Notes: generated by a model from the sequence alone, not told the origin. 64,000 nucleotides of DNA from Candidatus Zixiibacteriota bacterium (GCA_040753875.1 JBFMDV010000027.1:1-64000); one strand, 5' to 3'. Positions 3,772 through 37,735 are shown, numbered from the stretch's first letter. Translations and numbers: made by a program.

Positions 3772-3895
3772 GCCGTCAGCCGTCTCTGGCTGACGGCTGC
3801 CTCAAGCACGACTGAAGTCGGGCAGAGACGCCCGACTTCACCGCCGCTTCGCGCGGCTACACCGTATACCCCGTATCCCACAGCGAGCTGTGGGG
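3772..3895. repeat. cluster of GC-rich hairpins (palindromic repeat family)
   Basis: Three hairpins: gccgtcagcc-gtctct-ggctgacggc at 3772..3797, gaagtcgggc-agagac-gcccgacttc at 3814..3839, and cccacag-cgag-ctgtggg at 3877..3895. The first two are the two stem variants GTC(A/G)GGC of one family and carry reverse-complementary loops. Confidence 0.6.
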
Positions 3896-3907
3896 CACCC
3901 GTCCGAA

Positions 3908-5443
3908 TTACACCGTGTACAACTCCGTGATCTCGTTGTTGTCGGAGGCGTTGTAGACTTTGAACAGTTCCTGCGACAACGTCGTGTCGCGGATCAGGTT
4001 GATCCGGAACTTGTTCGCTTTCATCACTCGGTCGATATGATTCGTCCCGTTCTCAGTCAGAAACGAGCCGAGATTCGGGTTCACGATCAAATGGAACTTG
4101 TCGAACTTCTTCGCTGCCCGCGCCCGCAAAAACCACCGCTCGATCTTGGTCGCCATGTTCTCCTTGGACATGATTCGCCCCGCTCCGGCACAGTGCGGAC
4201 ACGGTTCGGACAGCGTATGCATGTGCGAGGGGCGCACCCGCTCACGGGTCATCTCGATCAGCCCAAAGTCGGTCACCGGATTGATCGCCCGCTTGGCGCG
4301 GTCATGACGAAACGCGTTACGGAACTCATCGTATAGCCGACGGCGGTTCTCGCGGCTGTACATGTCGATGAAGTCGCAGATAATCAGCCCGCCGATATCG
4401 CGGAGCCGAATCTGCCGCGCGATCTCGCGCGCCGCCACGATGTTTGTCTCGAAAATCGTATGCTCCTGGTCGCGGCTCCCTACGAAGCGGCCAGTGTTGA
4501 CATCGATAGTAACCATCGCTTCGGTCTGATCAATGATGATATAGGCGCCCTTCTTGATCCAGACTTTCCGTGACAGCATCTTTTCGATCTCCGGCTCCAG
4601 TTGATGCTGGTCGAACAACGGCGCGGTCCCCTTGTACAGGTGAATCCGGTCTTTGAGGTGCGGCGTCACCTGGCGCGCGAAGGCGATGATCTTCTTGTAT
4701 GCCTCGCGGTCATCGATGAGAACGCGCTGGACGTCGTCGGTGAACACATCGCGGATCAACGAAGTCACCATCTCGGCCTCTTTGTGGATAAGCGCCGGGG
4801 CGGGCATGGTGTCCGCTTTCCGTTTCAGTTTCGCCCAGAGCTTGAGCAGACGCTTGATATCCGCCTTGAAATCATCTTCCTGCTTCCCCTCCGCTTCGGT
4901 GCGGATAATCAGCCCGAACCCCTCCGGCCGGAGCGGCGCGACGATCTTCTTGAGCCGTTTCTTCTCCCCCCAATCGGTGATTCGCTTGGATACATGCACA
5001 TGGTCGTCATCGGGGACAATCACGAGATACCGCCCGGGAATCGAAATCTCCGAGGCGACGCGCGGTCCCTTGGTGGAGATTGGCTCTTTGATCACCTGAA
5101 CCAGAATCTCCTGATTCCGTTTCAGAACGGTCTCGATCCCTTGACGGCGGGTCTTGCGCACGATCTCGGCCGGTGCTTCTTCTTCGACATCTTCGGAGTC
5201 GAACCGTCGGCTGTAATCCTTGCCGATATCGGAGGAGTGCAGATAGGCTGCTTTCTCCGTTCCGATTTCGACAAACGCCGCCTGCATACCGGGCAGGACC
5301 GTCTTGATTTTTGCTTTGTAGATGTCCCCCACCATGCGTTCGGTGTCGGGACGTTCCACCTGCAGCTCGACCAGCTTGTCATCCTCGAGGATGGCAAGAC
5401 GGGTTTCGTACTCGGTGGAATTGATAAGAATTTCTTTTTTCAC
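3908..5443 (-). CDS. rng: ribonuclease G/E family protein (Rng-like)
   Basis: S1 domain followed by an RNase E/G catalytic domain (DFGLIEMTRER, CPHCAGAGRI). 511 aa. Overlaps fmt by 4 nt. Confidence 0.85.
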   Translation of the reverse strand: MKKEILINSTEYETRLAILEDDKLVELQVERPDTERMVGDIYKAKIKTVLPGMQAAFVEIGTEKAAYLHSSDIGKDYSRRFDSEDVEEEAPAEIVRKTRRQGIETVLKRNQEILVQVIKEPISTKGPRVASEISIPGRYLVIVPDDDHVHVSKRITDWGEKKRLKKIVAPLRPEGFGLIIRTEAEGKQEDDFKADIKRLLKLWAKLKRKADTMPAPALIHKEAEMVTSLIRDVFTDDVQRVLIDDREAYKKIIAFARQVTPHLKDRIHLYKGTAPLFDQHQLEPEIEKMLSRKVWIKKGAYIIIDQTEAMVTIDVNTGRFVGSRDQEHTIFETNIVAAREIARQIRLRDIGGLIICDFIDMYSRENRRRLYDEFRNAFRHDRAKRAINPVTDFGLIEMTRERVRPSHMHTLSEPCPHCAGAGRIMSKENMATKIERWFLRARAAKKFDKFHLIVNPNLGSFLTENGTNHIDRVMKANKFRINLIRDTTLSQELFKVYNASDNNEITELYTV

Positions 5444-6399
5444 AAATGCTCCCGAGCCTGGGTCACAGGCTCTCCCAGAACTTCCCCCGGTTGAAGTCTG
5501 AATCCGTTGATAAATGACACGCCGTCCATCTCCCCTTTACCTTCCGGCACCACTCTGGTCAGCTCGACAGCCGAATGGCTGCACTGCACCAGGAGTCGTT
5601 TGCGTTCGGCCAGTACGGTCCCGGGACGCGTGTCTGAATTTGTTGCGATGTCGGCCACGTTACAGGCCAGCACCTTGAGTCGTTTTCCCCGGCAACTCGT
5701 AGCGGCCCCGGGGCGCGTGGAGAGTCCACGCACAAAATTGCGGACATTGCGTGCCGGGAACCCGAAATCGATAAACGAGTTTTCCGGCGTGATCTTGGGC
5801 GCTGCGCCCGCCTGACGGTCATCCTGCTGGATCGGCTGAAGATTCCCGCTTTCGATCATCTCAAGCGTGCGCACCAGAAACGGTCCGGCCAGCGATGATA
5901 GCCGCGTGTAGAGCGTGTCGAAAATGTCGTCATCGTTGATCGCCACCTTTTCCTGAAGGATCATGTCCCCCGTGTCCACGTCCTTCCGCAGGAAGAAGCT
6001 GGTGAGACCGGTTTCGGTGTCGCCGTTGATAAGGGCCCAGTTGATCGGTGCCGCACCTCGATACCTGGGCAGCAGTGAGGCATGAACGTTCATGGAGCCG
6101 AGTCGCGGCAGGGTGAACAACCGTTCCGGCAGAATCCGGAACGCCACCACCACGAACAGATCGGCTTTCAGCTCCGCCAGCCGTTCGTACAGCTCATCCG
6201 ACTTGAGTGATGCCGGGGTCAGGACAGGCAGGCCGAGCTTTTGGGCATGCTGCTTTACCGGGGTGGTAAGCAGATGTCGTCCTCGGCCGGCCGGTTTGTC
6301 CGGTCCGGTCACCACGGCCAGGATGCGATGCCGGCTGTGGGCTAAATGATCGAGCGGACCCCGGGCAAACTCCGGGGTGCCCATATACACCACGTTCAT
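5440..6399 (-). CDS. fmt: methionyl-tRNA formyltransferase
   Basis: VVYMGTPEFA N-terminus and the SLLPRYRGAAPINWALING formyltransferase motif. Sits in the conserved def-fmt arrangement. Confidence 0.9.
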   Translation of the reverse strand: MNVVYMGTPEFARGPLDHLAHSRHRILAVVTGPDKPAGRGRHLLTTPVKQHAQKLGLPVLTPASLKSDELYERLAELKADLFVVVAFRILPERLFTLPRLGSMNVHASLLPRYRGAAPINWALINGDTETGLTSFFLRKDVDTGDMILQEKVAINDDDIFDTLYTRLSSLAGPFLVRTLEMIESGNLQPIQQDDRQAGAAPKITPENSFIDFGFPARNVRNFVRGLSTRPGAATSCRGKRLKVLACNVADIATNSDTRPGTVLAERKRLLVQCSHSAVELTRVVPEGKGEMDGVSFINGFRLQPGEVLGEPVTQAREHL

Positions 6400-6467
6400 A
6401 CTGGGATTAAGCGCGGACGGGCAACCTCATGTCATCGAGGCGCCGTATGGCATCACACTGCGGGAAA

Positions 6468-6974
6468 TCAGAGAGCGGCGGCTAATCGTTTCAGCCGCCC
6501 CTTCAACAGAGTTCGGGCGATCGGCGAAATGTAGTCAATGAACAGTTTCCCCTCGAGATGGTCATACTCGTGCAAAATTGCGCGGGCCACCATGCCCCGG
6601 GCCGTCATCTCAAATGACTGGCCGTTCACATCGAGCGCCCGGATGGTTACATGCGCCGGACGGACGATCTTCTGGTAAATCCCCGGAAACGACAGGCACC
6701 CCTCCTCGAGTTCAATGGCCCCGCTCGTGCTCACGATTTCCGGATTGATAAAGACCCTGAGGGATTCATTGATGTCGACGGCTGAGAGGTCGACAAGAAA
6801 CACTCGCCTTGGCACGCCAATCTGCACGGCAGCCAGGCCCAAACCCTGAGCTTGGTTCAGCGTGTCCGTCATATCGGACACCAAATCTTTTACACCCTGG
6901 TCGACAGTCTCGACCGGTCGGGATATTTCCCGCAATACCGGGTCGCCGTATTTGACGATCGGTCGCTCAGCCAC
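6468..6974 (-). CDS. def: peptide deformylase
   Basis: GIGLAAVQIG, EGCLSFPG and HEYDHLEG motifs. Confidence 0.9.
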   Translation of the reverse strand: MAERPIVKYGDPVLREISRPVETVDQGVKDLVSDMTDTLNQAQGLGLAAVQIGVPRRVFLVDLSAVDINESLRVFINPEIVSTSGAIELEEGCLSFPGIYQKIVRPAHVTIRALDVNGQSFEMTARGMVARAILHEYDHLEGKLFIDYISPIARTLLKGRLKRLAAAL

Positions 6975-7001
6975 GCTTACTCCTACACTACCTTACTGGC
7001 G

Positions 7002-7337
7002 TCACTTGTCCACCTTGGCGGCGATTGAGCTTCGGAGAAACTCCAGCTTGGTGTCATCGTTGATCTTCAGGATGATGCGGTTGCGCTCATCGTCGATCGC
7101 GAAGATGGTTCCAAACAGACCGCCTGAGGTGACCACTTTGTCGCCTTTTTTGAGCTCCGTTAAGAGCTTTTCATGTTCCTTCTGTCGTTTGCGCTGGGGG
7201 CGGATCATGAGCAGGTACATGACCACAAACATCAGCCCGATCCACACCAGCATGAGCATGCCGCTGCCGCCACCCGAATCGGGGCTTCCAGCCATCAACA
7301 GAAACCACTGATGGTTCAAAACAACTCCTGTACACAA
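7002..7337 (-). CDS. yajC: preprotein translocase subunit YajC (start probably an internal Met)
   Basis: MIRPQRKRQKEHEKLL..GDKVVTSGGLFGTI is the YajC signature, preceded by one N-terminal transmembrane helix. Confidence 0.8.
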   Translation of the reverse strand: MCTGVVLNHQWFLLMAGSPDSGGGSGMLMLVWIGLMFVVMYLLMIRPQRKRQKEHEKLLTELKKGDKVVTSGGLFGTIFAIDDERNRIILKINDDTKLEFLRSSIAAKVDK

Positions 7338-7496
7338 AGGTTATTATCGGCAGACCTGTTCAACTCCTGAACAGGTCCACGGTAACCTAATATAACCCTA
7401 TCAGCCGCAACGGCCAAGATAATAATCTTCTCTCTTAGAAACCGCGTTTTGGACGTCAAGTTCCGCCCATAGACAAGACGTGGAACCAGAAGCGGT

Positions 7497-7980
7497 TCAG
7501 CGCACAGCGAAACTGCGGCAGGTCACACGACCCGCCTGTGGCTGGGTCGTATAGCGCGCCGTTCTCGGTCTGACGGCTCCGTGTATGTGACCAGGTGTCG
7601 GGCGGGGACGCCCGACACCACCACCCACCACGAGATTGTCATTCCCGCGCACGCGGGAATCCAGCCGAAGCCAATGCTCTGGATTCCCGTTTTCACGGGA
7701 ATGACACACCGACAATCCCGCCCCAAGGGGCGGGGTACCCCACCGTCATCGGCCTGATCATAGACGAAGGCTTGCAGTGTGAAGTGTTCAACTGTGCCGT
7801 CAGGCGTCCCCGCCTGACAGCCCTTTTCCAACAAAAATAGTGTCGGGCGGGGACGCCAGACACCACTATCGAAACCGCATCTGGTTTTGCCACAGTGCAC
7901 GTTGATGTCCTTCTCCCTTTTAGGGAGAAGGTGCCAAAGGCGCCGTCCCGAGCATAGTCGAGGGGGCGGATGAGGGTCTC
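7497..7980. repeat. about 480 bp intergenic train of distinct GC-rich hairpins and nested palindromes
   Basis: Hairpins at 7594..7619 (ggtgtcgggcg-ggga-cgcccgacacc), 7641..7660, 7683..7702, 7717..7734 (cccgcccc-aa-ggggcggg), 7797..7820 (ccgtcaggcg-tccc-cgcctgacag), 7840..7863 and 7909..7931. A nested palindrome gattgtcattccc...gggaatgaca..acaatc spans 7634..7712. No ORF with coding character. Confidence 0.6.
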
Positions 7981-8616
7981 ATGCGTTTCAGTATCCCCTT
8001 GACAATCACCGACTTCTTTCCCTTCTTTCGGGCAGGGTTTTATGGAGGAATCATTATGACGACTAAGACACGCACGCGCCGTTTGGGGCGGACATCGCTG
8101 CTCAGTGTTCTTGCGCTATTGGCGTTGCTGACTCACGCGCAGGCATTTGATGGAAAGCGGCAGGGCTTTGTTACTGGCATCGGCTTCGGAATGTGTCCGA
8201 TGTCTCACTGGGCAGCGGATAATTATCCGCGGGAAATGGCAGAAGCCGGGGTCGGCTTCAACGGCTTCTTTGGACTTGCTTGGGACGAACAGAATTTCTT
8301 GACGATTGGGATTAGCGGTAGCTATTACAACACGATAGAAGCAAGCTTTCAAGGCTTGAGCGCAATCTCCTGGTATCATTACTGGGGGCGGAAGAAGCCT
8401 TTTTTTACATTCGGCGGCGTAGGCATGTTGTCATTCTCTACTGGCTACTGGGTTGGCAATGGGCGCGGATTCGGGTACACAGCAGGAGCAGGGTACGAAG
8501 TAGTTCGACATGTTCAGGTGGGATTCTATTACATCGGCGGCCACACCGGCGCCAATTATTACAGCGACGTCAGTCACAGCGTGGTGAACCTGCTGGTGAC
8601 GGTGGTGGCGTATTAG
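7981..8616 (+). CDS. outer-membrane beta-barrel-like protein (start likely ATG 8056 with GGAGGA RBS)
   Basis: Signal peptide MTTKTRTRRLGRTSLLSVLALLALLTHAQA. Gly- and aromatic-rich alternating pattern and a C-terminal aromatic residue (VVAY). Confidence 0.4.
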   Translation: MRFSIPLTITDFFPFFRAGFYGGIIMTTKTRTRRLGRTSLLSVLALLALLTHAQAFDGKRQGFVTGIGFGMCPMSHWAADNYPREMAEAGVGFNGFFGLAWDEQNFLTIGISGSYYNTIEASFQGLSAISWYHYWGRKKPFFTFGGVGMLSFSTGYWVGNGRGFGYTAGAGYEVVRHVQVGFYYIGGHTGANYYSDVSHSVVNLLVTVVAY

Positions 8617-8808
8617 CAGGGCAGATTGTTTCGTAGCACACCCAACGGGTGATGATTTTCGGAGCGGCGCATAATGAACGTCGCAACGCATGACGCTTAG
8701 GTGATGACAGAGAAAGCAGAGCCCTTACGAATAATCCTCACCCGATGGGTGGGCTACAAACTTTGCGCTTTCGAGCGCTGATAGTCCATTCTGTAAAAGC
8801 AGCTTCAA

Positions 8809-9171
8809 GTGTCCCTGTCTACCACCCCCCTCGCCTTCAACGACTGCATCACGCGCCATGATCTTGAGGGACTCTCGGCGTTGATGACCGAGGACCACAC
8901 GTTCATCGACAGGGACAACAACACTGTCAAAGGCAAAGCCGCCATGACCAACGCGTGGCGGGAGTTCTTCAAGCAGTTCCCCGATTACAAGAATACGTTC
9001 ATGCGGGTCGAAGCGCGCGGCGACAAGGTTGTCATGATCGGGTATGCTACGTGGAGCAAGGGGGCAGAACCGGACCCGGCGATATGGGTCGCGAGAATCG
9101 AGAATGGGCTCGTGATGGAGTGGCGGATCTATTACGACACGGATGAGAATCGTAAGATGCTGGGGGTGTGA
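8809..9171 (+). CDS. NTF2-like/SnoaL-like domain protein
   Basis: 120 aa with the pattern of a ketosteroid isomerase/NTF2 fold (cone-shaped alpha+beta). Assigned by resemblance only. Confidence 0.45.
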   Translation: MSLSTTPLAFNDCITRHDLEGLSALMTEDHTFIDRDNNTVKGKAAMTNAWREFFKQFPDYKNTFMRVEARGDKVVMIGYATWSKGAEPDPAIWVARIENGLVMEWRIYYDTDENRKMLGV

Positions 9172-9268
9172 GATTCTTACTGGCGCCATCTCGGAGCGGG
9201 AAACGGCTGTCGGAAATACAGCAGCAATCGCGGAATTGGCTTGGGAAGTGTTGAAAAAAACCTAGCAA

Positions 9269-9420
9269 GTCATTGCGAGCCCCGTCGAAGGCGGGGCATG
9301 GCAATCTCTACCTTTTGTAAGCTACCCGATATCGAGATTGCTTCGTCGTCCGCCTGAGGCGGACTCCTCGCAATGACGACGGGGACCTTTTTCAACAGGC
9401 CCTTTCACGGGAATGACAAA
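9269..9420. repeat. MITE-like palindromic element
   Basis: An 11-bp terminal inverted repeat, gtcattgcgag at 9269..9279 and ctcgcaatgac at 9367..9377, encloses hairpins at 9279..9297 and 9348..9364. It is followed by cacgggaatgaca, a motif also present at about 7695. Confidence 0.5.
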
Positions 9421-9591
9421 TACAGCCTGGATCGCAATATGGCCAAACTAACTCGTTATATCACAACGAACTATCCGCGCCGAATGTGATTCCAATCAGC
9501 AGATTTCCGCTTGCGTCGCGGAATCATGGGCCGTAATTTACCGCTATTAACCGACGCAGAAAACTCTCACCAAACTTGCACGGAGGTACAG

Positions 9592-10191
9592 ATGAAGAAG
9601 TCATTGATGATTGTCGCCCTCATGGCCATGGCGTGTCTGATGGCGCTGCCGGCACTCGCCGAGGAACCGGCCAAGCCTTCCGGCGAACAGATGCAGATGC
9701 CCCCTATGGGTCCGCCGGAGGAAATGAAGCAGTTGGCGTTTCTCGAAGGGACATGGGATGTGGTCTCCAATTTCAACATCAGCATGGACCCAACCAAGGA
9801 ACAGTGGCAGGAATCCAAAGCGACCGCCGTTTACAGCTATATCGTCGACGGTGCAGCGATGCAGTGCGTGTACGATGGCGGCGCCGACATGATGCCCGGC
9901 ATGCCGCCGTTCAAAGGATTTATGCTGCAGGCCTATAACCGCGAGACCAAGAAGTGGCAGGCCACGTGGGTGGACAACATGAGTGGAAGTATCAGCTTGT
10001 ATACCGGGACGCACGACGCGGGCAAGTCGGTTCTTGAGGGTGAGGATATGATGGGTGGGCAGAAGTGGTGGACCCGGATGACGAGCTACGACGAAACTCC
10101 CGGCGCGTTCAAGTGGAAGATGGAAATGTCCATGGACGGCGGCAAGACATTCGTAACGAGCGGCACCGCAACGTACACGAAGCGCAAATAG
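9592..10191 (+). CDS. secreted protein, DUF1579-like (lipocalin-like)
   Basis: GGAGG RBS 5 nt before ATG 9592. Signal peptide MKKSLMIVALMAMACLMALPALA. GTW...W.DN...DGGKT pattern. Confidence 0.4.
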   Translation: MKKSLMIVALMAMACLMALPALAEEPAKPSGEQMQMPPMGPPEEMKQLAFLEGTWDVVSNFNISMDPTKEQWQESKATAVYSYIVDGAAMQCVYDGGADMMPGMPPFKGFMLQAYNRETKKWQATWVDNMSGSISLYTGTHDAGKSVLEGEDMMGGQKWWTRMTSYDETPGAFKWKMEMSMDGGKTFVTSGTATYTKRK

Positions 10192-10263
10192 CCGAAGATC
10201 GCGATGTGGAGATGAAAGGCCGTGTGGACATCACACGGCCTTTTTCGCTGCAATAGTCTGGTT

Positions 10264-13200
10264 TCATCCCACTTTCCCCAGCACGCCTCTCAGATGACTC
10301 AGTCGGTCCTGCTCGGCGATTGCCATCAGGTTGATCGTGATCCTTGGCTGACCGGTGAGAGAGAACTCCATCGGGCAGTCGGTCCCGCGGCGGAATGATT
10401 CAACCTCATTCCGAGTCAGTCGTCTGGCCTCCAGGAACAGGATTGTAGCGACGCCGGAACGCAGGCGCACTTTTTCAACCTCCAGGAGCGCTGCGGCAAT
10501 TTTCACAGCCGTAGCATCGAACAGATACACTGCCGATTGCGGCGGACGACCAAACCGGTCGGTTACCTCATCGCGAATCTTCTCGACTTCATCGAGGTTC
10601 TTGCTGTCTGCCAGTCGCCGGTATATATCAACTTTCTGCTGACGGTCGTTGACGTAGTCATCGGGCAAATAGATCTCGACATCAAGTTCGAGCTTGGTGT
10701 CAGGGAGTCGAACGATCTCCTGCCCTTTCAACTCCGCGACTGCCTCTTCAAGCAGGCGGTTGTACAAGTCGAAGCCGACTTCCTCGATAAAGCCTGACTG
10801 GCGCGCACCCAGGATCGTACCGGCACCGCGTATTTCCAGATCGCGCATGGCCAGCGCAAAACCGGCCCCAAGGTCGGAGTGCGCCTCAAGGGCGCGGAGA
10901 CGCTTGATGGCATCCTGGGTCAGGAGTTTGACTGGCGGTGTGATGAGATAGGCATAGGCGCGACGCGCCGATCGCCCCACTCGCCCGCGTATCTGATACA
11001 GTTGTGCCAGCCCGAACCGGTCGGCGCGATTGATGATGATCGTGTTGGCGGACGGAATATCCAGGCCGGATTCGATGATCGAGGTACACAGGAGGACATC
11101 GTATCGTTTCGCCAGAAACGCCAGCATGATCCCTTCGAGCGAGCGCTCGTGCATCTGGCCATGTGCTACGGCAATCTCGACTTTGGGTAGGAGCTTCGAC
11201 AGGTAATGATGCATCGCTTCGATAGTCTGCACACGATTGTGCAGAAAGAACACCTGGCCACCGCGGTCGATCTCACGGCGAATGGCGGTTGCGATGATGG
11301 CTGGATCGAAATCGACGATCTCCGTGATGATGGGGAGTCGGTCTTTGGGCGAGGTGTTGATCAGGCTCATGTCGCGCGCTCCCATGAGCGACATCTGAAG
11401 AGTCCTCGGGATCGGCGTGGCGGTCATGGCCAGTGTGTCGACAGAGGCTTTCAACTGGCGAAGCTTCTCCTTGTGCTTGACACCGAACCGGTGTTCCTCG
11501 TCGATCACCAGCAGTCCCAGGTCTTTGAAATTGACATCGTCGGAAAGGAGCCGGTGGGTGCCGATGACCAGGTCGACTCTCCCATCGCCCAGGTCTTTGG
11601 CGGCCTGTGTCTGCTCGGATCGGGTGCGGAAACGGGACAGCATGGAGATCTTGAAGGGATACTCCCTGAGGCGGTCGGTGAAGGTGTTAAAATGCTGCTG
11701 GGCGAGAATGGTGGTGGGCACCAGCACCGCCACTTGCTTGCCGGCATCCATCGCCTTGAAGGCAGCGCGAATTGCCACTTCGGTCTTGCCATAGCCGACA
11801 TCGCCGCACACCAGGCGGTCCATGGGGCGTTCTTCCGCCATGTCCCGCTTGACATCATCGATAGCTTTCTGTTGATCCGGCGTCTCGTCGTATGGAAACG
11901 AGGCCTCCAGTTGTTTGAGCCAGACCGAATCCTCGCCGAACGCACAGCCACTGGCGGTTTTCCGCTCGGCGTACAGTTTTATCAGATCGGCCGCCATATC
12001 GGCAATCGCCTTCTTGGTCTTCTCCTTCAGTTTCTCCCATCCCGGACCACCGAGCTTAGTGAGTGAAGGAGCCGAGTCCTTACCCGAATATTTTGAGACC
12101 CGATTGAACTCCTCGATCGGGACATAGAGCCGGTCGGTGCCATCGTACTGAAGCAGCAGGCAGTCGCGGTGGCGGCCGTCGACATGGAGCGTGGTGAGCC
12201 CAAGGTACCGCGCGATACCAAAATCGGTGTGGACGACGAAGTCTCCCTGGTTGAGACTCGAATAATCCGTGATGGCCACGCCTTCTCTGAACCGTTTTTT
12301 CCGAATGCGGCGGTGATACCGGCTGAACAGTTCGTGGTCCGTGAGGATGGCAACGCCGGCATCGCGACACTCGAACCCGCCGCGGAGATTGGCGACCTCG
12401 ATAACGGGCCGGTGTTCGCTGGGAACTTTCTCGGCGATCAATTCGCTCAATCGGGAAGCCTGTCCCTCGTTGTCGGTGGCGAGGAAATAGGTCAGGCTGA
12501 GCTGGTCATATTCGGCGCAGGTTTTGCCGAGAAGGTCAAGTCGCGCATTGAGCGCCGGGTGGGGATGGCAGCCGAACGAGATAACTTCGCTCTTGCCGCC
12601 GCGAAACGGCACCTGGTCGATCACTTGATGCTGATCGAGCCGGGCGATCAGTTTGTCCGGCACGGTGTAGTATTCATCTGGCGCAGGGAGCCGGCTCAGG
12701 CGGCTTTTCAAGCGGTCCTGCAAAGCGTCGGCCTCGGCCATAATCGACTCGGCCTCGCTCCTGATCGACTCTTCGCCGAGCGTGATGATAAGACCGTTCT
12801 CCGGAAAATAGTCTAAGAGCGAACTCTGCTTGTGCCCGAACAAGAGCGACAGCCACTCCAGCCCGGGAAGCTCCGGATCGTTGAGGTAGCGCGAGCGAAT
12901 GTAATCGGCGTCTTCTTCAGGTAAGAGTCCAAGCTGTTCCTCGATCGATTCCTGCGTGACAGCGACTTCGCGCTTGGGCAGTATCTGGACGCGTTGAATC
13001 TGAGCCAGCGTCCGCTGGCTGCCGACATCGAACTCACGGATGGTATCGATCTCGTCACCATAAAACTCAATGCGCACGGGAGCGGAGGAACCGGGGGTGA
13101 AGAAATCGATCAACCCGCCGCGTCGGGCAAAGTCCCCCACTTCTTCAACGACCGATACGCGATGAAATCCGAGACGGACCAGCCGCTCGGTCAATTCGTC

Positions 13201-13689: not shown

Positions 13690-13710
13690 ACCATCATTTT
13701 ATTTCAGATA

Positions 13711-13749: not shown

Positions 13750-13808
13750 TATTGCTGTTATTTCCGGGTGCCAAGATAATTGGTCCTGATCTATTTGCCA
13801 AGTCCTCT

Positions 13809-27575: not shown

Positions 27576-27581
27576 GCGGTG

Positions 27582-29048
27582 CTATTGCTGAGAAAGGGAA
27601 CGTGGTGAGGACGTTCCCTTTTTCGCATTTCCCAACGCCCCCTGTTCGAACGTGATGGCGTGCAGAATGGTATCGACGAAGAAGTAGTTCTCCGCGCTGA
27701 AGGGCACGTACAGAAGACGCGCTTCCACCGGTGCAATGCCAACCGGCGCCGATGCGAGGCGCGTCTGCTTTGATGTCAGGTCGCGCTGGATAACTACTTC
27801 GGCGAGAGTCAACGCCTCGGTCAAACCGATGGTGGCCGGCTCACAACTTTTCTCCAGACGGTCCATGGTCTCGACCGGCAGGCGGCCCGAAGCCGTCGTC
27901 ACTCGCTTGGTCAGTCGGTACATGCCCTCAAAGCTACGCATCGCGAACGCCGGAATGACCAACTGGTCGGACGGGTAGAGCCCTCCGAGCACGCTGCGGA
28001 CGTCGGCGGCACTTGTGTCGGTCAGCCGAAACGCCCAGAATGGGAACAGCCGGTCATTCGCCGGTTTTGCGTTTGTCGCCGCGACAAGCTCCCGGTTCAA
28101 TAGTCCGTTCGATTCCAAAAACTCCACTCGGTCGCAATTGTGACACGCGTAGACGCAGGAGCGCGTCTCGGGAAGGTCGACACCGCAATTGCCGCAACGA
28201 TGTAACATTACCGATAAGCTGCCGAACTCGACGACAGTATCAACAGGCGACTGACTCGGTCTATCGCTCTCGTCCTGTCCTTCACCGGCCACTTTGCCGG
28301 TAACAGCATCGACGGCAAAGCGGCGCACGGTGCCGGTCGATGGTGATTCAACCAGATAGTAGGGGAAGTACACCATGGAGCCGCGTGGTCGGAAGAGGCG
28401 CGTGGCATGTCCGCCCGGTTTGACCTCTTCCAGTCTGCCGAGACTGCTCACAGTCTTTTCCGACCGGGCCAGGGCATCAGACCATGTTTGCGTAATGGGA
28501 AGCGATACGAACCCATCGGGCAAACTTTCGCGTGAGAACGGAATCATGTGGAGGAACTCCGTTCGCATACCCAGCGAGTACGGAATGGCCGGATCGGAGC
28601 CACAGGCGATTATGGTCGTACTGTACGGCACGAGATTGATGTCGGTGCGTGTGCGCTCCTCCGGTTCCGTATCGGAGAACTCGTCCTCGTTTTCGCACTC
28701 CACTTCGTAGGTGATGGTGCGAACTTTGAGCATGACGGCATCGATCTTCCAATACGGACAGAGAACGGCGGTGATGCTCAGGCCGGAATTCGTCAGCGGC
28801 AGACCGTTGTCCCGGCAGTACCGGTCGACCACGAACCGCACTTCCGACTTGGGCTTCTTCGCTCGCACCAGATAGGCGGGAGGCGTTTCGGGCATGATGA
28901 TGCGAAGCACTGACGCGCAATGTGGGCAGGTGAGCACAAAGAAATTGCTTTGCAGCTCAAGCTCCCCACCGCAGCCGGGACAACTGACATCGATGCTGAA
29001 GCCGACTCTATGCTGGCTTGGTGTCGCCGCCATTGACCTGCTTTCCAC
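27582..29048 (-). CDS. zinc-ribbon-containing hypothetical protein
   Basis: CPGCGG..n..CPHC near the N-terminus and CGNCG..n..CHNC in the middle. Overlaps the upstream SPFH gene by 41 nt. Confidence 0.5.
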
Positions 29049-30153: not shown

Positions 30154-30293
30154 GTGAAAAGGCGATTATATAGTCCAATAGGTCTATTGTCGGCAGAGTC
30201 TGCCGACCACTGAATAGTGGTTCGGCCGCGGGAACCTGGCGGGTCGAACGGGGCTTATAGGGAAAATAGTCCGTTTATCTCAGGAGATCCACG

Positions 30294-31208: not shown

Positions 31209-31246
31209 TATCAAAGCAAACACCAACGCTGTCGATATAATGGAAT

Positions 31247-31807
31247 ATGCTGGCGTTCTTTGAAGACATCAAAGCGATCTACCGCAACGACCCGGCGGCG
31301 CGGAATATCGAGTTCCTGCTGTATCCGGGGTTCCACGCGATCACCTTCCATCGGTTCAACCACTTTCTGTGGAAACTGGGGATCCCGTTCATACCGCGGC
31401 TTTTGTCCCAGTTCAACCGGTTTTTCACCGGTCTGGAGATCCATCCGGGCGCCAAAATCGGCAAGGGTTTTTTCGTTGACCACGGCGCCGGCGTGGTGAT
31501 TGGTGAAACCACCGAGATCGGCAACAACTGCGTGCTGTTTCACAACGTGACGCTCGGCGGTACCGGCAAACATCACGGCAAGCGTCACCCCACCCTCGGC
31601 AACAACGTGCTGGTCGGCACCGGCGCCATTCTGCTCGGTCCGATCACGGTCGGGGACAATGTCAAGATCGGCGCCAACAGTTTTGTGGTGATGCGCGACG
31701 TCCCGCCAAACTGCACGGTGGGCGGCACTCCGGCCAGGATCATCAAGCGGAACAATGTTGAGGTCGACGAAGAACTGCCCAAGACGATCATCGATGTCGC
31801 CGCATAA
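31247..31807 (+). CDS. cysE: serine O-acetyltransferase
   Basis: Left-handed beta-helix hexapeptide repeats (GVVIGETTEIGNNCVLFHNVTLGGTG) and an N-terminal SATase helical domain. Confidence 0.85.
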   Translation: MLAFFEDIKAIYRNDPAARNIEFLLYPGFHAITFHRFNHFLWKLGIPFIPRLLSQFNRFFTGLEIHPGAKIGKGFFVDHGAGVVIGETTEIGNNCVLFHNVTLGGTGKHHGKRHPTLGNNVLVGTGAILLGPITVGDNVKIGANSFVVMRDVPPNCTVGGTPARIIKRNNVEVDEELPKTIIDVAA

Positions 31808-31892
31808 GTGAGCTGCGGTCCTAACATCGCTAACAATATCCATATAAAAGAGCCCTTCTTGTTCAGATTGGGCCATTTCTCCGAAGAAAAAC

Positions 31893-31928
31893 GTTGACAA
31901 TATCGAGTTATCGCTCGATATTTAGATG
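31893..31928 (+). promoter_or_regulatory. sigma70-like promoter candidate with an embedded perfect inverted repeat ATCGAG-n6-CTCGAT
   Basis: TTGACA, then a 17-nt spacer containing the palindrome, then GATATT. No plus-strand ORF lies downstream for about 2.4 kb. Confidence 0.2.
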
Positions 31929-32048
31929 GAGAGTTACCTGAATCGCGGCGAAGCTTTGGGGCCTGCCGGAACGGGCGGCTTTCCGATAGTGAATTGCTTT
32001 CGTTGTTACCACATACCCTCGGTTTCGCCGGGGGTATGCTGTATAGGT

Positions 32049-32441
32049 TCAACTTTGCGGTGTTCGACGTAACGCCCCACCGATCATGACGCCGATTATT
32101 CCTACAATCACGAGCGCCACTTGATACCATAGGGGCTGAACTCCCCGCGCAGCGAATGCCGAAACAAGCCCCATCACAACAATCACGGCCGCCAGCCAGT
32201 AGATGTGTTGCCCTGGTGTCTGCCGGGCTATGAGAACTGTCACATTTCCGCCGGCTGCCGCAAACACCAGGCCGGTCCCGAGAATCACGAGCGGCCAGGG
32301 CTGAAGCGGGAACAGGTTTCCCTTGTCCATGCCCACGCCAAAATGCTCCGGCACAAGAATGCCAAGTGCCGCGAAAAAAATGAGGGTGAGTACGGCCATG
32401 ACAAGATATCCGGCGGCGACGGCCAGAATGCTTCGTACCAT
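32049..32441 (-). CDS. small integral membrane protein (about 4 transmembrane helices)
   Basis: Hydrophobic. GAGGA RBS 9 nt before Met 32441. Confidence 0.4.
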   Translation of the reverse strand: MVRSILAVAAGYLVMAVLTLIFFAALGILVPEHFGVGMDKGNLFPLQPWPLVILGTGLVFAAAGGNVTVLIARQTPGQHIYWLAAVIVVMGLVSAFAARGVQPLWYQVALVIVGIIGVMIGGALRRTPQS

Positions 32442-32581
32442 GATGCTATTCCTCTTCGACTGAGTTGGTAACCGACAGCGGAATAGTAGATTTGCTGAGT
32501 CCAAAAAGCAAGCCCGGGGGCGTGATACGCATCCGGGCACTATCAGGCCATGCCGGCCGCAATTATGCTACCACAGGTCGC

Positions 32582-33337
32582 TCATTTGTCGGCGGTGCCC
32601 AACGGCTTTCCCTGCGCAAATGATTCCTGCCTGGCTTGCAGTCCGTTTTCGTCCCAGGTGGTCCAGACACCCACCTTCTCCCCTTCGTGGTACTGTCCTT
32701 CTGTCCAGCGAAGTCCGTTCACTCGCCAGGTGGCAAAGGGACCCTGTAATCGACCGTTCTTGTAGGCGGATTGCTGCTGCTTCTGACCGGATTCATACCA
32801 AATGGTCCAGGTCCCTTCGGGAAGTCCCTGCAGATACATCCGCTCTTCCTGTTTGGCTCCACTCGGATACCAGGATACCCAGGAACCGTGTTCTTTCCCA
32901 CGATTGCAGAACCACTCCTCTTTGCGCTGACCGTTGGCGTACCAGCGCGTCCAGTGGTCATCCGGTTTCCCCCGATAGAACTTTCCCTTTTCCTGCACCT
33001 GGCTATTCTCGTAAAGGGCGACATACGGCCCGTGAAGCTGACCCGACAGGTAGCGGCAGGTTTCCTTCTGGGCGCCGTTTTCATAGTAGGTGACCCAACT
33101 GCTCGAACGCACCCCCTGCTCGTAGGTTCCCTGGGTCTCCTTTTGGCCGGAGGGGTACCATGAGGTGAACTGTCCCTGTTTGACAGCCGTCCCGGTGGAA
33201 TCGCTTTGTTCCATCCATTGGGCTTTCAGACGGTGGTCCGGATAATATTCCCGCTTCTGACGGAATGTGCTGCTACAGGCGCTAAGCAGCAACGCAGCGA
33301 TAAGAAAAATCGAGGTGGCAACTAAAGTCTTTTTCAT
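32582..33337 (-). CDS. MORN-repeat lipoprotein (YwqK-like repeat family)
   Basis: Lipobox LLLSAC|S. Repeated W(Y/T)..G.K...G.Y..G units. Confidence 0.65.
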   Translation of the reverse strand: MKKTLVATSIFLIAALLLSACSSTFRQKREYYPDHRLKAQWMEQSDSTGTAVKQGQFTSWYPSGQKETQGTYEQGVRSSSWVTYYENGAQKETCRYLSGQLHGPYVALYENSQVQEKGKFYRGKPDDHWTRWYANGQRKEEWFCNRGKEHGSWVSWYPSGAKQEERMYLQGLPEGTWTIWYESGQKQQQSAYKNGRLQGPFATWRVNGLRWTEGQYHEGEKVGVWTTWDENGLQARQESFAQGKPLGTADK

Positions 33338-33551
33338 GACAGATATCTCCCGAGTTGTTTCGGTCAGTATCTGTCATTATCGGATCGGCCGGACCGAAAT
33401 TTGAGTTGAATGTCGTCGATGGTTGTCGGTACTAACGGCGTGACATTCGTCGATTGCCCAACTTTTGAACAACCGTACCACAGAAATACCTATGAAAATG
33501 GGCAGAGGTATGAGACCTCTGCCCCGCTGAAATCTGACTATGATGACAGGA

Positions 33552-34136
33552 TCAGTAGGAGTACTGTGGCTCCCAGCCGTTGGCCCCTTTGGGGAGCAGG
33601 TCGAGAAAATGCCATACGGCGCAGAAGTCATCACCTGGGCCGAAGTAGGTCTTTGCTACCTGGAAGATTCTCCCCTTCTTATCGCGCACGAACGCCGAGA
33701 CACCGGGCCAGGGGCTTTCGTCTTTTGAGGCGAACCCCATGTCGGCGAAGAAGCGGGTGCCGTAGCTCGAGAACATGCGGAATTTCCAGCCCCGCATCTG
33801 GCCGAACGCCCGTTGGGTTTGATAGTCGTCGGGAGAGACGACTACGAACGGCAAACGGTTTTCCATGTGCCAGTAGATGCCGTTGAACCCATCGGCCCAC
33901 AACGTACAGTAGCGGCACGCTTTTCCCATGTTGTGCACAACAATCAGCTCGTTGCGCTCGTCGAAAAGGCTGGACAACGTGACATCGGCCCCCTCCCACG
34001 TCTTGAACGTGTAGTCAGAGATTTCCTTTTTGGGGAGCTTCTTGCGGAGTTTGGTCAGTTTCTGTTTGGTCTTGAGAATCTCTTTTTCGAGCTTCTGGAC
34101 TTCTTTCGCCGCGCCGGGGGTCGCCGTTCGCGCCAT
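33552..34136 (-). CDS. DUF899-like thioredoxin-fold protein (true start Met 34136; the longer ORF to 34820 is an artifact)
   Basis: AGGAG RBS 7 nt before ATG 34136. Conserved C..C (ACRYCTLWADG) in a thioredoxin-like context. Confidence 0.5.
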   Translation of the reverse strand: MARTATPGAAKEVQKLEKEILKTKQKLTKLRKKLPKKEISDYTFKTWEGADVTLSSLFDERNELIVVHNMGKACRYCTLWADGFNGIYWHMENRLPFVVVSPDDYQTQRAFGQMRGWKFRMFSSYGTRFFADMGFASKDESPWPGVSAFVRDKKGRIFQVAKTYFGPGDDFCAVWHFLDLLPKGANGWEPQYSY

Positions 34137-34325
34137 TTGGTTACTCCTTCTGATGACTGTTTGATGAGACAATCTAATATCGATGAGCCTGGTACACAAT
34201 AGGCTCGATATCACATGTGAACTTGCAGCCTTAACGTGAAGTATCTGCCAGTTGCTTTGCCTCTTTCGCTCGACGCGCGACCATTCTATATTGCCGCCTG
34301 ACATGCAGCCCAATACAACAGAAGG

Positions 34326-37300
34326 ATGGTCGCGATGATCTGCCGTGCCTTGCTCCGTTTGACTTCGTTTATTCTTGTGATCCCGCTCACATTCATAACC
34401 TCGGTTGCACTTGGCGCAGACCCAGACACGGCCAAGGCCGAAAAGAAATGGGATGTCACCAACCCCGGCGTCCCCTGCGACACGCTGGAGTTTGACGCCA
34501 CCGAGGGGACCTGGACAAGTCTCGATGTCAGTCCCGACGGACGGAAGATCGTGTTTGACCTGCTTGGGGATATCTACGCCATGCCGATCACCGGCGGCAA
34601 TGCTACGCTGCTTTCCGGCGGTTTGCCGTACGAGACACAACCGCGGTTCAGCCCGGACGGGAAATGGATTTCGTTCACCAGCGACCGCGGCGGCGCGGAC
34701 AATATTTGGATCATGCACACGGATGGCTCCGAGCGCACGCAAATCACCAAAGAAGATTACCGTCTTCTGAACAACGCCAACTGGCACCCCAACGGACAGT
34801 ATATCATCGCACGGAAGCATTTCACCAGCGAACGAAGCATGGGAGCCGGTGAGATGTGGCTATACAAGATTCCGGAAGGGGGAGGCGGGGTTGGGCTGAC
34901 CACTCGGAAGAACGACCAGCAGGATGCCGGCGAACCAATCTTCTCGCGCGACGGTAAGTTCCTCTACTGGTCCGAGGATATGACGCCAAGCGGCTATTTC
35001 GAATACAATAAAGACCCCAATGGCACGATCTATGTTGTCCGCCGTCTTGACTTGCAGACCAACGAGATCCGAGACATTATCAGCCTCCCCGGCAGCGCGG
35101 TGCGTCCGCAGATCAGCCCTGACGGGAAAATGATGGCGTTTATCCGCCGCGTCCGCGCGAAATCGGTCCTGGCGCTGTACAATCTGGAGAGCGGCGAAGT
35201 TCGGCATTTGTGGAATGGTCTCGATGAGGACCAGCAGGAGACCTGGGCGATTTTCGGTGTCTACCCAGGCTATTCGTGGACACCCGATGGCAAAAGCATT
35301 GTCATCACAGCCAAAGGGAAAATCTGGCGGGTCGATGTCGCCACTGGTCAGTCGACCGAGATACCGTTCAAGGCTCACGTAGTTCAGACACCTGCCAAAG
35401 CTATCCGGTTCGATCAGACAGTAGCGGGAGAGACATTTCCAGTCAAGGTCATCCGGTGGCCATCTGTTCTAACTAACGGCAGAGATGTAATCTTCCAGGC
35501 GCTTGGATATCTCTACAAATACAATCCGGCCACCGGTGCCCGCGCTCGAATTACCAAACAGACCGACCATTTCGAATTTGCGCCTTCGCTCAGCCCAGAC
35601 GGCAAGTCGCTGGTCTGTGTTACCTGGAACGATCGCACCGGCGGCAGAGTGGAGTTGGTTCGTCTGGACAATGGACAGGAACGTGCACTTGTGAATCGTC
35701 CCGGACACTATGTAACCGCCTCATTCAGCCCGGACGGGCAGTGGGTAGTCTATCATCGAGGTGGCGGCGATGGGTTCCGCGGACGGATTTGGGACGATGA
35801 CCCCGGAATCTATATCATCGATGCCGCCGGCACGAAGGAGTCAAGGTTCCTCACGCGTGAAGGCAGGCAACCGGTGTTCAGCAAAGATGGACAACGGGTC
35901 TATCTGCTTTCAAACGAAGGGAAGAAATCTGCGCTGATAAGCGTGGATCTGCTCGGCTCGGATCGGCGCGTGCATGTGACATCGGAGCGGGCGGTCGATT
36001 TCCGCCTCTCCCCCGACGAGAATTGGCTGGCGTTCGAGGAACTCTGGCAATCATATGTGGTGCCGTTCCCGCACGGGAATGTACCACTCGACATTGCGCC
36101 AGAGATGAAAAGCCTTCCAGTGAGACGCCTGTCGTCGGATGCCGGCACCTATCTCAGTTGGTCACCTGAAAGCAAAACAGTCCGGTGGAGCCTTGGCTCA
36201 CAGTTGTACAGCGTTGAAGTAGCCAAGCTATATGCGGAGGCACCGACGAGCGATAGTGCAGACAAGAAGGCGGATGAAGATAAACCTAAGGTGAAACCGG
36301 ACTCGGTCAACCTTGGCTGGCAGGAACCATGCGACATTCCGAATACTGATCTGTATTTCGTAGGCGCGAAGATACTCCCGATGAACGATATGTCGATTAT
36401 CGAGAACGGTGTCGTCCATATCAAAGGTCAGAAGATTGTTGAGGTCGGGACAAAGGACAAGATCGCGATTCCGGCGAATGCCAAGGTGATCGATGTGAGC
36501 GGGATGACTCTAATGCCGGGACTGGTCGACATTCATGCCCACCCCTGGTCCTCGAACAGCGACATCTACCCGCAACAGGACTGGGCGTATCTGGTGAATC
36601 TGGCGTTCGGGGTCACCACCATGCACGACCCAAGCAACAACTCCCAGATGGTGTTCGCCAATGCGGAACTGGTCAAGAAGGGAACCTGGCTTGGGCCGCG
36701 CGTTTTCTCCACCGGTACCATTCTGTACGGCGCCGAAGGGGATTTCAAGACCGTGATCAACTCGTATGAGGATGCCGTCAGCGCTATCAAGCGGACCGCT
36801 GCCTGGGGTGCCTTTTCTGTCAAAAGCTATAATCAGCCACGCCGAGAGCAACGACAGATGGTGATCAAAGCCGCGCGCGAGTTGGGAATAGAAGTTGTCC
36901 CCGAAGGGGGTTCCTGCCTGTACTACAACATGACGCACCTCCTCGATGGCCACACCACGCTGGAACATCCCGTACCCGTAACGCCTCTGTACGACCCGGA
37001 ATTGCGTCTGCTGGGCCGATTCGGCACTGGTTACACGCCTACCCTGATCGTGGGCTACGGTGGATTATGGGGCGAGAACTACTGGTACCAGCATTACAAT
37101 GTCTGGGAGAACAAGCGGCTGATGAATTTCACCCCGCGCTCAGTGGTCGACCCGCGCTCGCGCCGTCGCCCGATGGCGCCCGAAGAGGAGTACCATCATT
37201 TCGCGCTGGCGAAAACAGCGACCGACGTGCTGCACGGTGGCGGCAATGTAGAGATCGGCGCGCACGGACAGTTGCAGGGGCTTGGCGCGCACTGGGAGAC

Positions 37301-37619
37301 ATGGATGCTTCAGCAGGGCGGGATGACGAATCACGAAGCACTGCGCTGCGCCACCTGGATGGGAGCGCGGGCGATTGGACTCGATAAGCAGCTTGGCAGT
37401 ATTCAACCGGGATTACTGGCCGATCTGATCGTGATTGACGGCGACCCCCTAACCGATATTCGGCAATCGGAAAATATCAAGTACGTGATGGTGAACGGCC
37501 GTCTCTACGACGCGATGACGCTGGATCAGCTTGAGCCGGAGAAGAAGCCACTTCCCGAAGGTCCCAATCTCGACGGCGTGCTGGGCACGGATGTGGGGCA
37601 CGGGTGTATTGGGGAGTGA
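34326..37619 (+). CDS. secreted fusion of an N-terminal TolB-like beta-propeller (PD40/WD40-like repeats) and a C-terminal metal-dependent amidohydrolase
   Basis: Signal peptide. Repeated SPDG(K/R).(I/L).F motifs. Amidohydrolase metal ligands (DIHAHPW, HxH and a downstream His/Asp). 1097 aa. Confidence 0.75.
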   Translation: MVAMICRALLRLTSFILVIPLTFITSVALGADPDTAKAEKKWDVTNPGVPCDTLEFDATEGTWTSLDVSPDGRKIVFDLLGDIYAMPITGGNATLLSGGLPYETQPRFSPDGKWISFTSDRGGADNIWIMHTDGSERTQITKEDYRLLNNANWHPNGQYIIARKHFTSERSMGAGEMWLYKIPEGGGGVGLTTRKNDQQDAGEPIFSRDGKFLYWSEDMTPSGYFEYNKDPNGTIYVVRRLDLQTNEIRDIISLPGSAVRPQISPDGKMMAFIRRVRAKSVLALYNLESGEVRHLWNGLDEDQQETWAIFGVYPGYSWTPDGKSIVITAKGKIWRVDVATGQSTEIPFKAHVVQTPAKAIRFDQTVAGETFPVKVIRWPSVLTNGRDVIFQALGYLYKYNPATGARARITKQTDHFEFAPSLSPDGKSLVCVTWNDRTGGRVELVRLDNGQERALVNRPGHYVTASFSPDGQWVVYHRGGGDGFRGRIWDDDPGIYIIDAAGTKESRFLTREGRQPVFSKDGQRVYLLSNEGKKSALISVDLLGSDRRVHVTSERAVDFRLSPDENWLAFEELWQSYVVPFPHGNVPLDIAPEMKSLPVRRLSSDAGTYLSWSPESKTVRWSLGSQLYSVEVAKLYAEAPTSDSADKKADEDKPKVKPDSVNLGWQEPCDIPNTDLYFVGAKILPMNDMSIIENGVVHIKGQKIVEVGTKDKIAIPANAKVIDVSGMTLMPGLVDIHAHPWSSNSDIYPQQDWAYLVNLAFGVTTMHDPSNNSQMVFANAELVKKGTWLGPRVFSTGTILYGAEGDFKTVINSYEDAVSAIKRTAAWGAFSVKSYNQPRREQRQMVIKAARELGIEVVPEGGSCLYYNMTHLLDGHTTLEHPVPVTPLYDPELRLLGRFGTGYTPTLIVGYGGLWGENYWYQHYNVWENKRLMNFTPRSVVDPRSRRRPMAPEEEYHHFALAKTATDVLHGGGNVEIGAHGQLQGLGAHWETWMLQQGGMTNHEALRCATWMGARAIGLDKQLGSIQPGLLADLIVIDGDPLTDIRQSENIKYVMVNGRLYDAMTLDQLEPEKKPLPEGPNLDGVLGTDVGHGCIGE

Positions 37620-37668
37620 TTGAGGCGTCGGTCCCGCCGCAAGTGGTGGGGTACCAAGTGGATGTGTG

Positions 37669-37735
37669 GTGTCGGGCGTCCTCGCCCGACACGCGATCCG
37701 CCTCGCAGAAGCCGTCAGGCGGGGACGCCTGACGG
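37669..37735. repeat. pair of palindromic hairpins (one of each stem variant)
   Basis: gtgtcgggcg-tcct-cgcccgacac at 37669..37692 and ccgtcaggcg-ggga-cgcctgacgg at 37712..37735. Near-identical to the copies at about 7600, 7800 and 3800. Confidence 0.6.

Follow-up and report, generated by a model that had tools for sequence, protein, structure and literature searches.

What are the near-identical GC-rich palindromes that recur between genes of a Candidatus Zixiibacteriota contig, and how could they have reached several sites? The window analyzed here is a 64-kb stretch of a contig from a metagenome-assembled genome (MAG) of this phylum, and all coordinates are positions in it. A sequence-only reading had described hairpins in this window and compared them to repetitive extragenic palindromic (REP) sequences and bacterial interspersed mosaic elements (BIMEs). 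Direct reading combined with an exhaustive hairpin scan found every one of these hairpins at its coordinates. Seven are clear, one additional copy is decayed, and the sites lie at most 34 kb apart. The results presented below indicate that these elements are probably GTAG/GTGG-tagged REPs arranged as head-to-head heterodimers, resembling BIMEs and REPINs (REP doublets forming hairpins).

The hairpins are grouped in four composite units of about 75 bp, each composed of an A hairpin, CTGT-GCCGTCAGGCG-tccc-CGCCTGACGGC, and an inverted B hairpin, GTGTCGGGCG-ggga-CGCCCGACAC-CAC, with the tags directed outward. When the units are aligned, the loops within every pair are opposite. Since each site has one A and one B hairpin with opposite loops, the unit is a heterodimer. 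The individual copies, with the E-values of an nhmmer profile search, are the following.

3768-3797, + strand: A-type unit of dimer 1, tag CTGT followed by GCCGTCAGCC-gtctct-GGCTGACGGC (hairpin 3772-3797), GTCTCT-centre subfamily; E=5.8e-07.

3813-3843, - strand: B-type unit of dimer 1, TGAAGTCGGGC-agagac-GCCCGACTTCA (hairpin 3813-3840), then a CAC-like tail; E=1.7e-07.

7563-7582, + strand: decayed A-type unit of dimer 2 (tentative), GCCGTtctcggtctGACGGC, read as GCCGT-tctcggtct-GACGGC, in which the outer stem alone is kept.

7594-7622, - strand: B-type unit of dimer 2, GGTGTCGGGCG-ggga-CGCCCGACACC-CAC (hairpin 7594-7619), used as the B reference copy in the repeat comparison; E=1.2e-07.

7792-7821, + strand: A-type unit of dimer 3, CTGT-GCCGTCAGGCG-tccc-CGCCTGACAGC, with one outer-stem mismatch and 97% identity to the 37711 copy; E=6.8e-09.

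7840-7866, - strand: B-type unit of dimer 3, GTGTCGGGCG-ggga-CGCCAGACAC-CAC (hairpin 7840-7863), 96% identical to the 7594 copy; E=1.6e-08.

37666-37692, + strand: B-type unit of dimer 4, GTGGT-GTCGGGCG-tcct-CGCCCGACAC (hairpin 37669-37692), 96% identity; E=1.8e-06.

37711-37740, - strand: A-type unit of dimer 4, whose + strand reads GCCGTCAGGCG-ggga-CGCCTGACGGC-ACAG, with 0 mismatches to the consensus; E=1.1e-07.

30189-30210, - strand: possible diverged B-type singleton (tentative), GTCGGCAG-agt-CTGCCGAC-CAC, located between genes (gap 30154-30293) and having the GTCGG...CCGAC-CAC frame in common with the B units.

Placed in a common orientation, A and B fit the frame xTGxG-NN-GTCRGGCG-TCCY-CGCCYGAC. 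They are distinguished by the base pair at stem position 4 (A-T in A, G-C in B), by the outer two to three stem pairs and by asymmetric flanks, CTGT 5' of A and CAC 3' of B, so that the conserved tags are CTGTG for A and GTGGT for B. The two stem variants of the sequence-only reading do exist, but they are not interchangeable alleles, each site having one of each; similarly, the A/G difference that it noted is real at position 4 but is accompanied by the differences in the outer pairs and flanks. Insertion in both directions is true of the whole dimer, dimers 1-3 having the same direction and dimer 4 (37666-37740) being inverted, but not of the halves, which are always mutually inverted within a dimer. 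The description of the palindromes as perfect applies to some copies, such as 37711-37736 with its perfect stem of 11 bp, but not to others: the stem at 7796-7821 is perfect for just 8 bp and has an A/G mismatch in its outer pairs, in agreement with the mismatch reported for this copy, and that at 7840-7863 has one mismatch (CGCCAGAC). The hairpin at 37669 is present, with a tcct loop rather than the tccc first given.

The two halves of a dimer appear concerted. The B-unit centre of dimer 1 is the reverse complement of its A-unit centre (GTCTCT/AGAGAC), and dimers 3 and 4 both have TCCC/GGGA centres. In dimer 2, the ...CTGACGGC arm of the decayed copy at 7563-7582 aligns with the other A units, and 11 nt (7583-7593) separate it from the B copy at 7594.

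Comparison with shuffled sequences and with each other shows that these copies are not chance hairpins. With up to two mismatches, the pattern GTCRGGCG-N4-CGCCYGAC has 6 matches in the window versus 0.16 +/- 0.42 expected from 100 dinucleotide shuffles, none of which reached 6; with up to three mismatches, the 30-nt A unit has 2 window matches versus 0.00 expected. A profile made from the seven units recovers all seven (E 7e-9 to 2e-6) and nothing beyond them in the window; the decayed copy at 7563-7582 and the candidate at 30189-30210 were both missed by this search. The repeat finder detected two sequences shared by unlinked loci, confirming that near-identical copies are present at distant sites: CTGTGCCGTCAGGCGTCCCCGCCTGACRGC, common to 7792-7821 and 37711-37740 at 29/30 positions (97%), and GTGTCGGGCGGGGACGCCCGACACCAC, common to 7595-7621 and 37666-37692 at 26/27 positions (96%). 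In both cases the asymmetric flank is included in the match.

The stretch is about 93% coding and has 20 intergenic gaps of at least 60 bp. All A/B units are intergenic and are confined to three of these gaps, 3767-3907, 7338-7980 and 37620-37769. The earlier count of at least four intergenic regions has to be corrected accordingly, as the 7594 and 7797/7840 copies share one gap of 643 bp (7338-7980). The first gap is downstream of the RNase G gene, in a unidirectional context, the second is located between the divergent yajC and an outer-membrane protein gene, and the third separates the convergent PD40-amidohydrolase and aromatic amino acid hydroxylase genes. An association with gene ends or convergent pairs is thus seen at two of the three sites, both 3' of genes and one of them convergent, but not at the divergent one.

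Such positions could suggest that the hairpins arose in situ at each gene end, primarily as terminators or as stabilisers of RNA 3' ends, and look alike through shared constraints. Two of the three sites downstream of genes, one between convergent genes, the very high stability of the hairpins on both strands and the GGGA loop, a GNRA-type tetraloop, are all in line with this idea. However, reading of the flanks shows no T run after any hairpin, hence no U-tract, and a terminator scan of 3500-8200 reports none of them; the hairpins are not intrinsic (rho-independent) terminators. One cluster is between divergent genes and, per transcript, one hairpin of the pair has a UCCC loop instead of GGGA. 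Between three other convergent gene pairs of the contig there are hairpins that occur only once (10215-10243, 27593-27621 and 47448-47472). A-run/T-run flanks are found at the first (AAAGGCCGTGTG-gacat-CACACGGCCTTT) and the second (AAAGGGAACGT-ggtgagg-ACGTTCCCTTT), as is typical of ordinary bidirectional terminators, and the third (GAGGGACAGG-ttgtg-CCTGTCCCTC) is preceded by A-rich sequence and lacks a T-run. Between the convergent genes at 37620-37769 there is the REP dimer alone, without an ordinary terminator. Above all, convergence is excluded by the 29/30 and 26/27 identities, unpaired flanks included, between copies 30 kb apart. An origin as in-place terminators thus appears largely refuted by flank identity, and we hold it to be very improbable.

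A classical transposon derivative was also considered, in the light of the internal geometry of the units. The core-to-core distance is fixed at 42-43 nt (3775/3817, 7799/7842, 37671/37714), and the spacers of 15-18 nt show no sequence kinship (ccttttccaacaaaaata, ttctgcgaggcggatcgc, tgcctcaagcacgac). A unit of about 75 bp, with ends that are inverted copies of each other and with both orientations represented, could in principle be a miniature inverted-repeat transposable element (MITE) of a DDE-type insertion sequence (IS), the A and B hairpins being its terminal inverted repeats. But the unit borders (ttcaa/tatcg, gagtcg/acatcc, ttcaaa/cgccgc) show neither direct repeats nor target-site duplications, and the internal spacers are unrelated, while unit-wise copying would keep them. 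In addition, the two ends are palindromes in their own right, as is usual for REPs but not for the terminal repeats of DDE elements, and neither the window nor the 120 related loci contain a parent IS. We consider a MITE origin most unlikely.

Folding predictions gave -44 to -51 kcal/mol for the dimers, with z-scores of -4.8 to -7.7, on both strands. For dimer 3, the predicted fold of either strand is a single long hairpin (-45 to -50 kcal/mol, z about -7.5), and for dimers 1 and 4 it is two separate hairpins. A known structured RNA was ruled out, Rfam having no match at the hairpins at gathering thresholds or even at E<=1.

These features were compared with the GTAG REPs described by Di Nocera, De Gregorio and Rocco (2013; PMC3733652). 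According to these authors, GTAG REPs have stems of 6-13 bp, short loops and an unpaired tag, GTAG, which some families have in the degenerate form GTRG or GTGG; they form sub-families with complementary stem changes and are located between unidirectional and convergent ORFs. Head-to-head dimers predominate, often heterodimers with different stems and 20-100 bp between partners, and the elements were found in Planctomycetes, Verrucomicrobia, Chloroflexi and Cyanobacteria (PMC3733652). The window elements resemble this superfamily, including the GTGG-tagged GTAG-20 of Opitutus terrae and SMAG of Stenotrophomonas, a likeness that is drawn from the published description. They too are short GC-rich palindromes with stems of 8-11 bp, a 4-nt loop and, apparently, an unpaired tag of 4-5 nt at one end; they form compensatory sub-families and mostly head-to-head (hetero)dimers, are intergenic and mostly downstream of genes, and belong to deep-branching phyla, the same core bearing the canonical GTAG tag in other phyla. 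GTGG is a published tag variant; CTGTG/GTGC is unlisted. Zixibacteria are not among the host phyla described for the superfamily and would be added to the phyla with tagged REP dimers.

REPINs associated with a REP-associated tyrosine transposase (RAYT) in Pseudomonas fluorescens SBW25, and E. coli BIMEs, are similar in that two inverted REPs form the unit. As in REPINs, a single long hairpin is a predicted fold of the pair, at least in dimer 3, and the halves appear to evolve in concert; as in BIMEs, whose partners are the Y and Z types, the two REPs of a pair differ slightly and are in opposite orientation. Unlike REPINs, the halves of the window elements are self-sufficient perfect hairpins, two of three dimers being predicted as two separate hairpins, and whereas the REPIN-RAYT system has a RAYT gene in the same genome, typically with the same REPs on its flanks, the 64-kb window encodes none. 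BIME linkers are conserved motifs that bind integration host factor (IHF) or gyrase, whereas the window linkers are unrelated. The other class, CGTC REPs, is defined by a CGTC/TGTC tag, a stem of 8-9 bp starting with AT, a loop of 4-5 nt and a CCA tail, the Neisseria members of the CGTC-1 family being the dRS3 repeats (PMC3733652). The A/B stems start with GTC/GCC and not AT, and have no CCA tail; for this reason they form a family separate from CGTC REPs and merely co-occur with them. We therefore file them under tagged REP heterodimers, whose published description they match, the CGTC definition fitting instead a pair at 7637-7706. The REP/BIME-type reading first proposed is thus upheld by short GC-rich palindromes that are intergenic, near-identical at unlinked loci and arranged as inverted tagged pairs. 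For this genome the result is a matter of routine annotation: selfish or semi-domesticated intergenic palindromes, and no new system.

Orthologous sites allow a view of how stable these elements are. The product of the hydroxylase gene (37770-39560) is 100% identical to a Candidatus Zixiibacteriota protein of NCBI, and its relatives at 82-83% include the RBG-1 assembly. In the RBG-1 relative (locus L169, 82% identity), the gap orthologous to 37620-37769 is 9829-10222, of 394 bp, and carries other palindromes; at 9944-9975 it has an A-like element of the same orientation and of another sub-family, GCCGTCAGCC-agagac-GGCTAACGGC-AC. In a second relative (L168), the orthologous gap 2358-3266 has an extra membrane-like ORF of 219 aa and no canonical copy. 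Because the orthologous gaps carry other palindromes, another sub-family or no canonical copy, the elements turn over between close relatives. The longer orthologous gaps of L169 and L168 also hold CCGTCAGGTC...GACCTGACGG, GTCCCGCT-cgga-GCGGGAC and a GTCATTGCGAGG-type element.

Is the hairpin itself restricted to this lineage? A genome scan, with one genome per species and the exact core GTCRGGCGRGGACGCCYGAC, listed at least 141 matches to GTCRGGCG-RGGA-CGCCYGAC (20 nt) in at least 120 loci of at least 67 assemblies from about ten phyla; these and the following figures refer to the matches listed. The phyla are Zixibacteria, Acidobacteriota, Planctomycetota (anammox bacteria included), Verrucomicrobiota, Ignavibacteria/Kapaibacteria, Bacteroidota, Chloroflexota, Omnitrophota, Gemmatimonadota and Poribacteria. 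By our own rough estimate, about 10-60 matches are expected by chance over the whole collection, and isolated matches in Streptomyces, Haloferax and similar genomes appear to be fortuitous or to fall in coding sequence. Several copies per MAG are nevertheless frequent, with MAG-specific flanks and often inverted pairs. The numbers of core copies in sampled loci of five of them are given below.

CAVBVK01: 20 core copies.

CAZWOY01: 13 core copies.

CAYLYZ01: 13 core copies.

CAYFUL01: 10 core copies.

JADHWD01: 7 core copies.

The inverted-dimer arrangement is also observed in related MAGs (e.g. loci L059, L072, L145 and L129), and the flanks of the core are lineage-specific: CTAC (=GTAG), ACCAC (=GTGGT) and CTCC (=GGAG), as well as GCCCA, ACCCT and AGCAC. 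Acidobacteriota have the architecture TGGAG-GACGGGCG...-GTCGGGCG...-CTCCA, Brocadiaceae and other Planctomycetota GGTAG-GACAAGCG-tccc-CGCTTGTC-8 nt-GTCAGGCG-agga-CGCCTGAC-CTACC, and Zixibacteria and relatives ...GTCAGGCG...ACCAC. The free R/Y position of the stem is a Watson-Crick pair in 129 of the 141 matches (A-T in 65, G-C in 64) and a mismatch or wobble in 12. A three-way-junction ribozyme was considered for the double hairpins of other phyla and dropped, since no hammerhead-like core was seen by eye. A full-text literature search with six core variants found none of them, the 24 published family consensuses being in figure form.

That a single hairpin core underlies repeat families in about ten phyla, the tag alone changing by lineage, is a rather doubtful interpretation of these matches. 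If it were true, it would imply an old or widely transferred partner that recognises the hairpin (a RAYT clade or a host protein), with hairpin specificity frozen and tag specificity drifting, or alternatively transposase-less elements retained for a host function. A shared core with lineage-specific tags would also provide a data set for how RAYT-type enzymes divide hairpin and tag recognition, and could help decide between long vertical inheritance of REP families and their movement between phyla.

The core was also found in two near-identical high-GC viral contigs, at 7706-7725 and 9566-9585 in L005 and at 4990-5009 and 6850-6869 in L036. These copies read GGTGTCGGGCG-agga-CGCCCGAC-CTACGC, are about 1.86 kb apart and have the flank type of Kapaibacterium MAGs. 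No RAYT is encoded between the paired copies, and matches to the generic N4-loop pattern in viral contigs are mostly chance matches with random loops.

How could tagged REP dimers have spread? An asymmetric tag beside a hairpin is the signature that RAYTs recognise, as in the E. coli RAYT-REP complex. For GTAG REPs, the literature proposes mobilisation by RAYTs. A HUH...Y regular-expression search found no RAYT, the window included. A RAYT hidden Markov model (HMM) was built from 13 published RAYT/TIRYT sequences and applied to about 6,500 ORFs from the surroundings of the 141 listed hairpins. It gave a single match, at 6523-7239 of locus L136 (MAG JADHWD01, Black Sea, 750 m), which corresponds to Pfam Y1_Tnp (PF01797, E=4.8e-06), and no match in viral or metagenome loci. 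The element ACTGTGCTGTCAGGCGTCCCCGCCTGACAG lies 170 bp upstream of this RAYT gene and is identical at 29/30 positions to the window A unit at 7790-7819. Within the RAYT frame itself lie three dimers of another GTAG REP, arranged in tandem (GTAGGGGCAGGGttcaCCCCTGCCC ... GGGCGACCgcaaGGGTCGCCCCTAC). These intragenic REPs translate as ...VGAGFTPAH.RATARVAPT..., and Saprospiraceae homologues (L178 3289-3367) carry similar ones. A metagenome scan for the tagged A unit yielded 6 loci, all of the GTGCT variant and without a RAYT. All-against-all BLASTP clustering of the 120 hairpin-bearing loci found that the shared families are merely unrelated large ones, e.g. histidine kinases.

Taken together, family resemblance and the one, weak case of L136 suggest mobilisation by a RAYT, which we regard as plausible with somewhat less than even confidence. 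Under this scheme, single-stranded DNA of the unit would fold into hairpins, and a RAYT-type HUH/Y1 tyrosine transposase encoded elsewhere in the genome would recognise the hairpin plus its tag. The enzyme would nick beside the tag and move the unit by copy-out/copy-in to new intergenic sites, without target duplications. The concerted halves and the replacement of sub-families at orthologous sites may reflect that copying, or gene conversion. Once resident, the stable hairpins transcribed at gene 3' ends could act as 3' exonuclease barriers or leaky terminators. Such an RNA 3'-end role of the dimers is proposed tentatively, with less confidence than the RAYT step, and is most plausible as a barrier at the convergent pair 37620-37769, which has no ordinary terminator.

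Several observations weigh against parts of this scheme. The site between divergent genes (7338-7980) does not fit a 3'-end role. The window tags, CTGTG for A and GTGGT for B, are not the canonical GTAG, and the window spacers are unrelated in sequence, though fixed in length, unlike those of head-to-head REP dimers, for which the literature gives conserved spacers as a rule of thumb. In the close relatives L168 and L169, canonical copies are nearly absent from 32 kb of sequence. The 64-kb window contains no gene for a RAYT or another transposase, and only one RAYT was found in about 800 kb around the 141 listed hairpins, with the element on one side only; given loci of 8 kb, its proximity to the element amounts to a coincidence of about 1 in 20. 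Furthermore, the REPs inside the RAYT gene at two Saprospiraceae loci are of other types, and this hairpin is absent from both loci. Finally, the CGTC class of REPs has no dedicated transposase according to the literature, so that a RAYT is not guaranteed for the window elements.

The last point leads to another explanation, namely that the hairpins are orphan palindromic repeats without a dedicated transposase, comparable to CGTC REPs, and are kept because a conserved host factor binds the hairpin pair. This factor would bind cruciform or single-stranded DNA or RNA, the fixed spacing of 42-43 nt would reflect a dimeric binding protein, and the repeats would have spread by recombination, gene conversion or borrowed enzymes. 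It would account for a core-to-core distance that is constant despite unrelated spacers, for a 20-nt core that is common to about ten phyla while the flanking tags vary, and for the near absence of RAYTs around the 141 listed copies. CGTC REPs without a transposase are a published precedent, and one such dimer is found in the 643-bp gap. On the other hand, no candidate binding protein was identified, and one RAYT does adjoin a near-identical A-type element (L136). The rarity of RAYTs in the sampled loci is moreover expected, because a genome normally has a single RAYT gene or a few of them. The fixed spacing and the recurrence of the core across phyla tilt slightly toward a host factor and away from the RAYT step, but we consider the orphan explanation as a whole improbable.

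Other palindromes accompany the tagged REP dimers. Each of the three A/B-bearing gaps has one copy of a third hairpin type, TCCCRCxxC-RAG-xKGYGGGGYACC, at 3874-3899, 7718-7743 and 37628-37655, in the same + strand orientation throughout; its motif GKGGGGYACC has 3 window matches versus 0.49 expected. The 643-bp gap also contains a CGTC-1-type dimer at 7637-7664 and 7679-7706, TGTC-ATTCCCGC-gcac-GCGGGAAT-CCA and its inverse, whose elements have all the defining features of CGTC-1, the family of the Neisseria dRS3 of NIME (Neisseria intergenic mosaic element) arrays. This pair consists of inverted ATTCCC-N8-GGGAAT hairpins that are 86% complementary, with 3 window matches versus 0.24 expected. 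A reading of these hairpins as DNA uptake sequences of Neisseriaceae was ruled out by the hydroxylase, which is 100% identical to the Candidatus Zixiibacteriota protein. A hairpin resembling this CGTC-1 type adjoins core hairpins in MAG CAYLYZ01 (L059). As the third hairpins and the CGTC-1-type pair share the gaps with the A/B units, these gaps are mosaics of palindromic repeat types, and the 643-bp gap in particular, a mosaic of several of them, is similar to a NIME/BIME cluster.

The palindromes also explain several spurious ORFs. Two ORFs, 7523-7900 (- strand, 125 aa) and 7595-7840 (+ strand, 81 aa), are wholly inside the 643-bp gap and are very likely artefacts of the palindromes. In the RBG-1 relative, the PD40-amidohydrolase and DUF899 genes are separated by a 297-aa gene of unknown function; comparison of L169 13514-14740 with 33338-34325 of the window shows no counterpart of this ORF in the latter. 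At the start of the stretch, region 1-2345 has a G+C content of 48.5% versus about 57%, contains small ORFs alone, without a Pfam match, and may be foreign or non-coding DNA.

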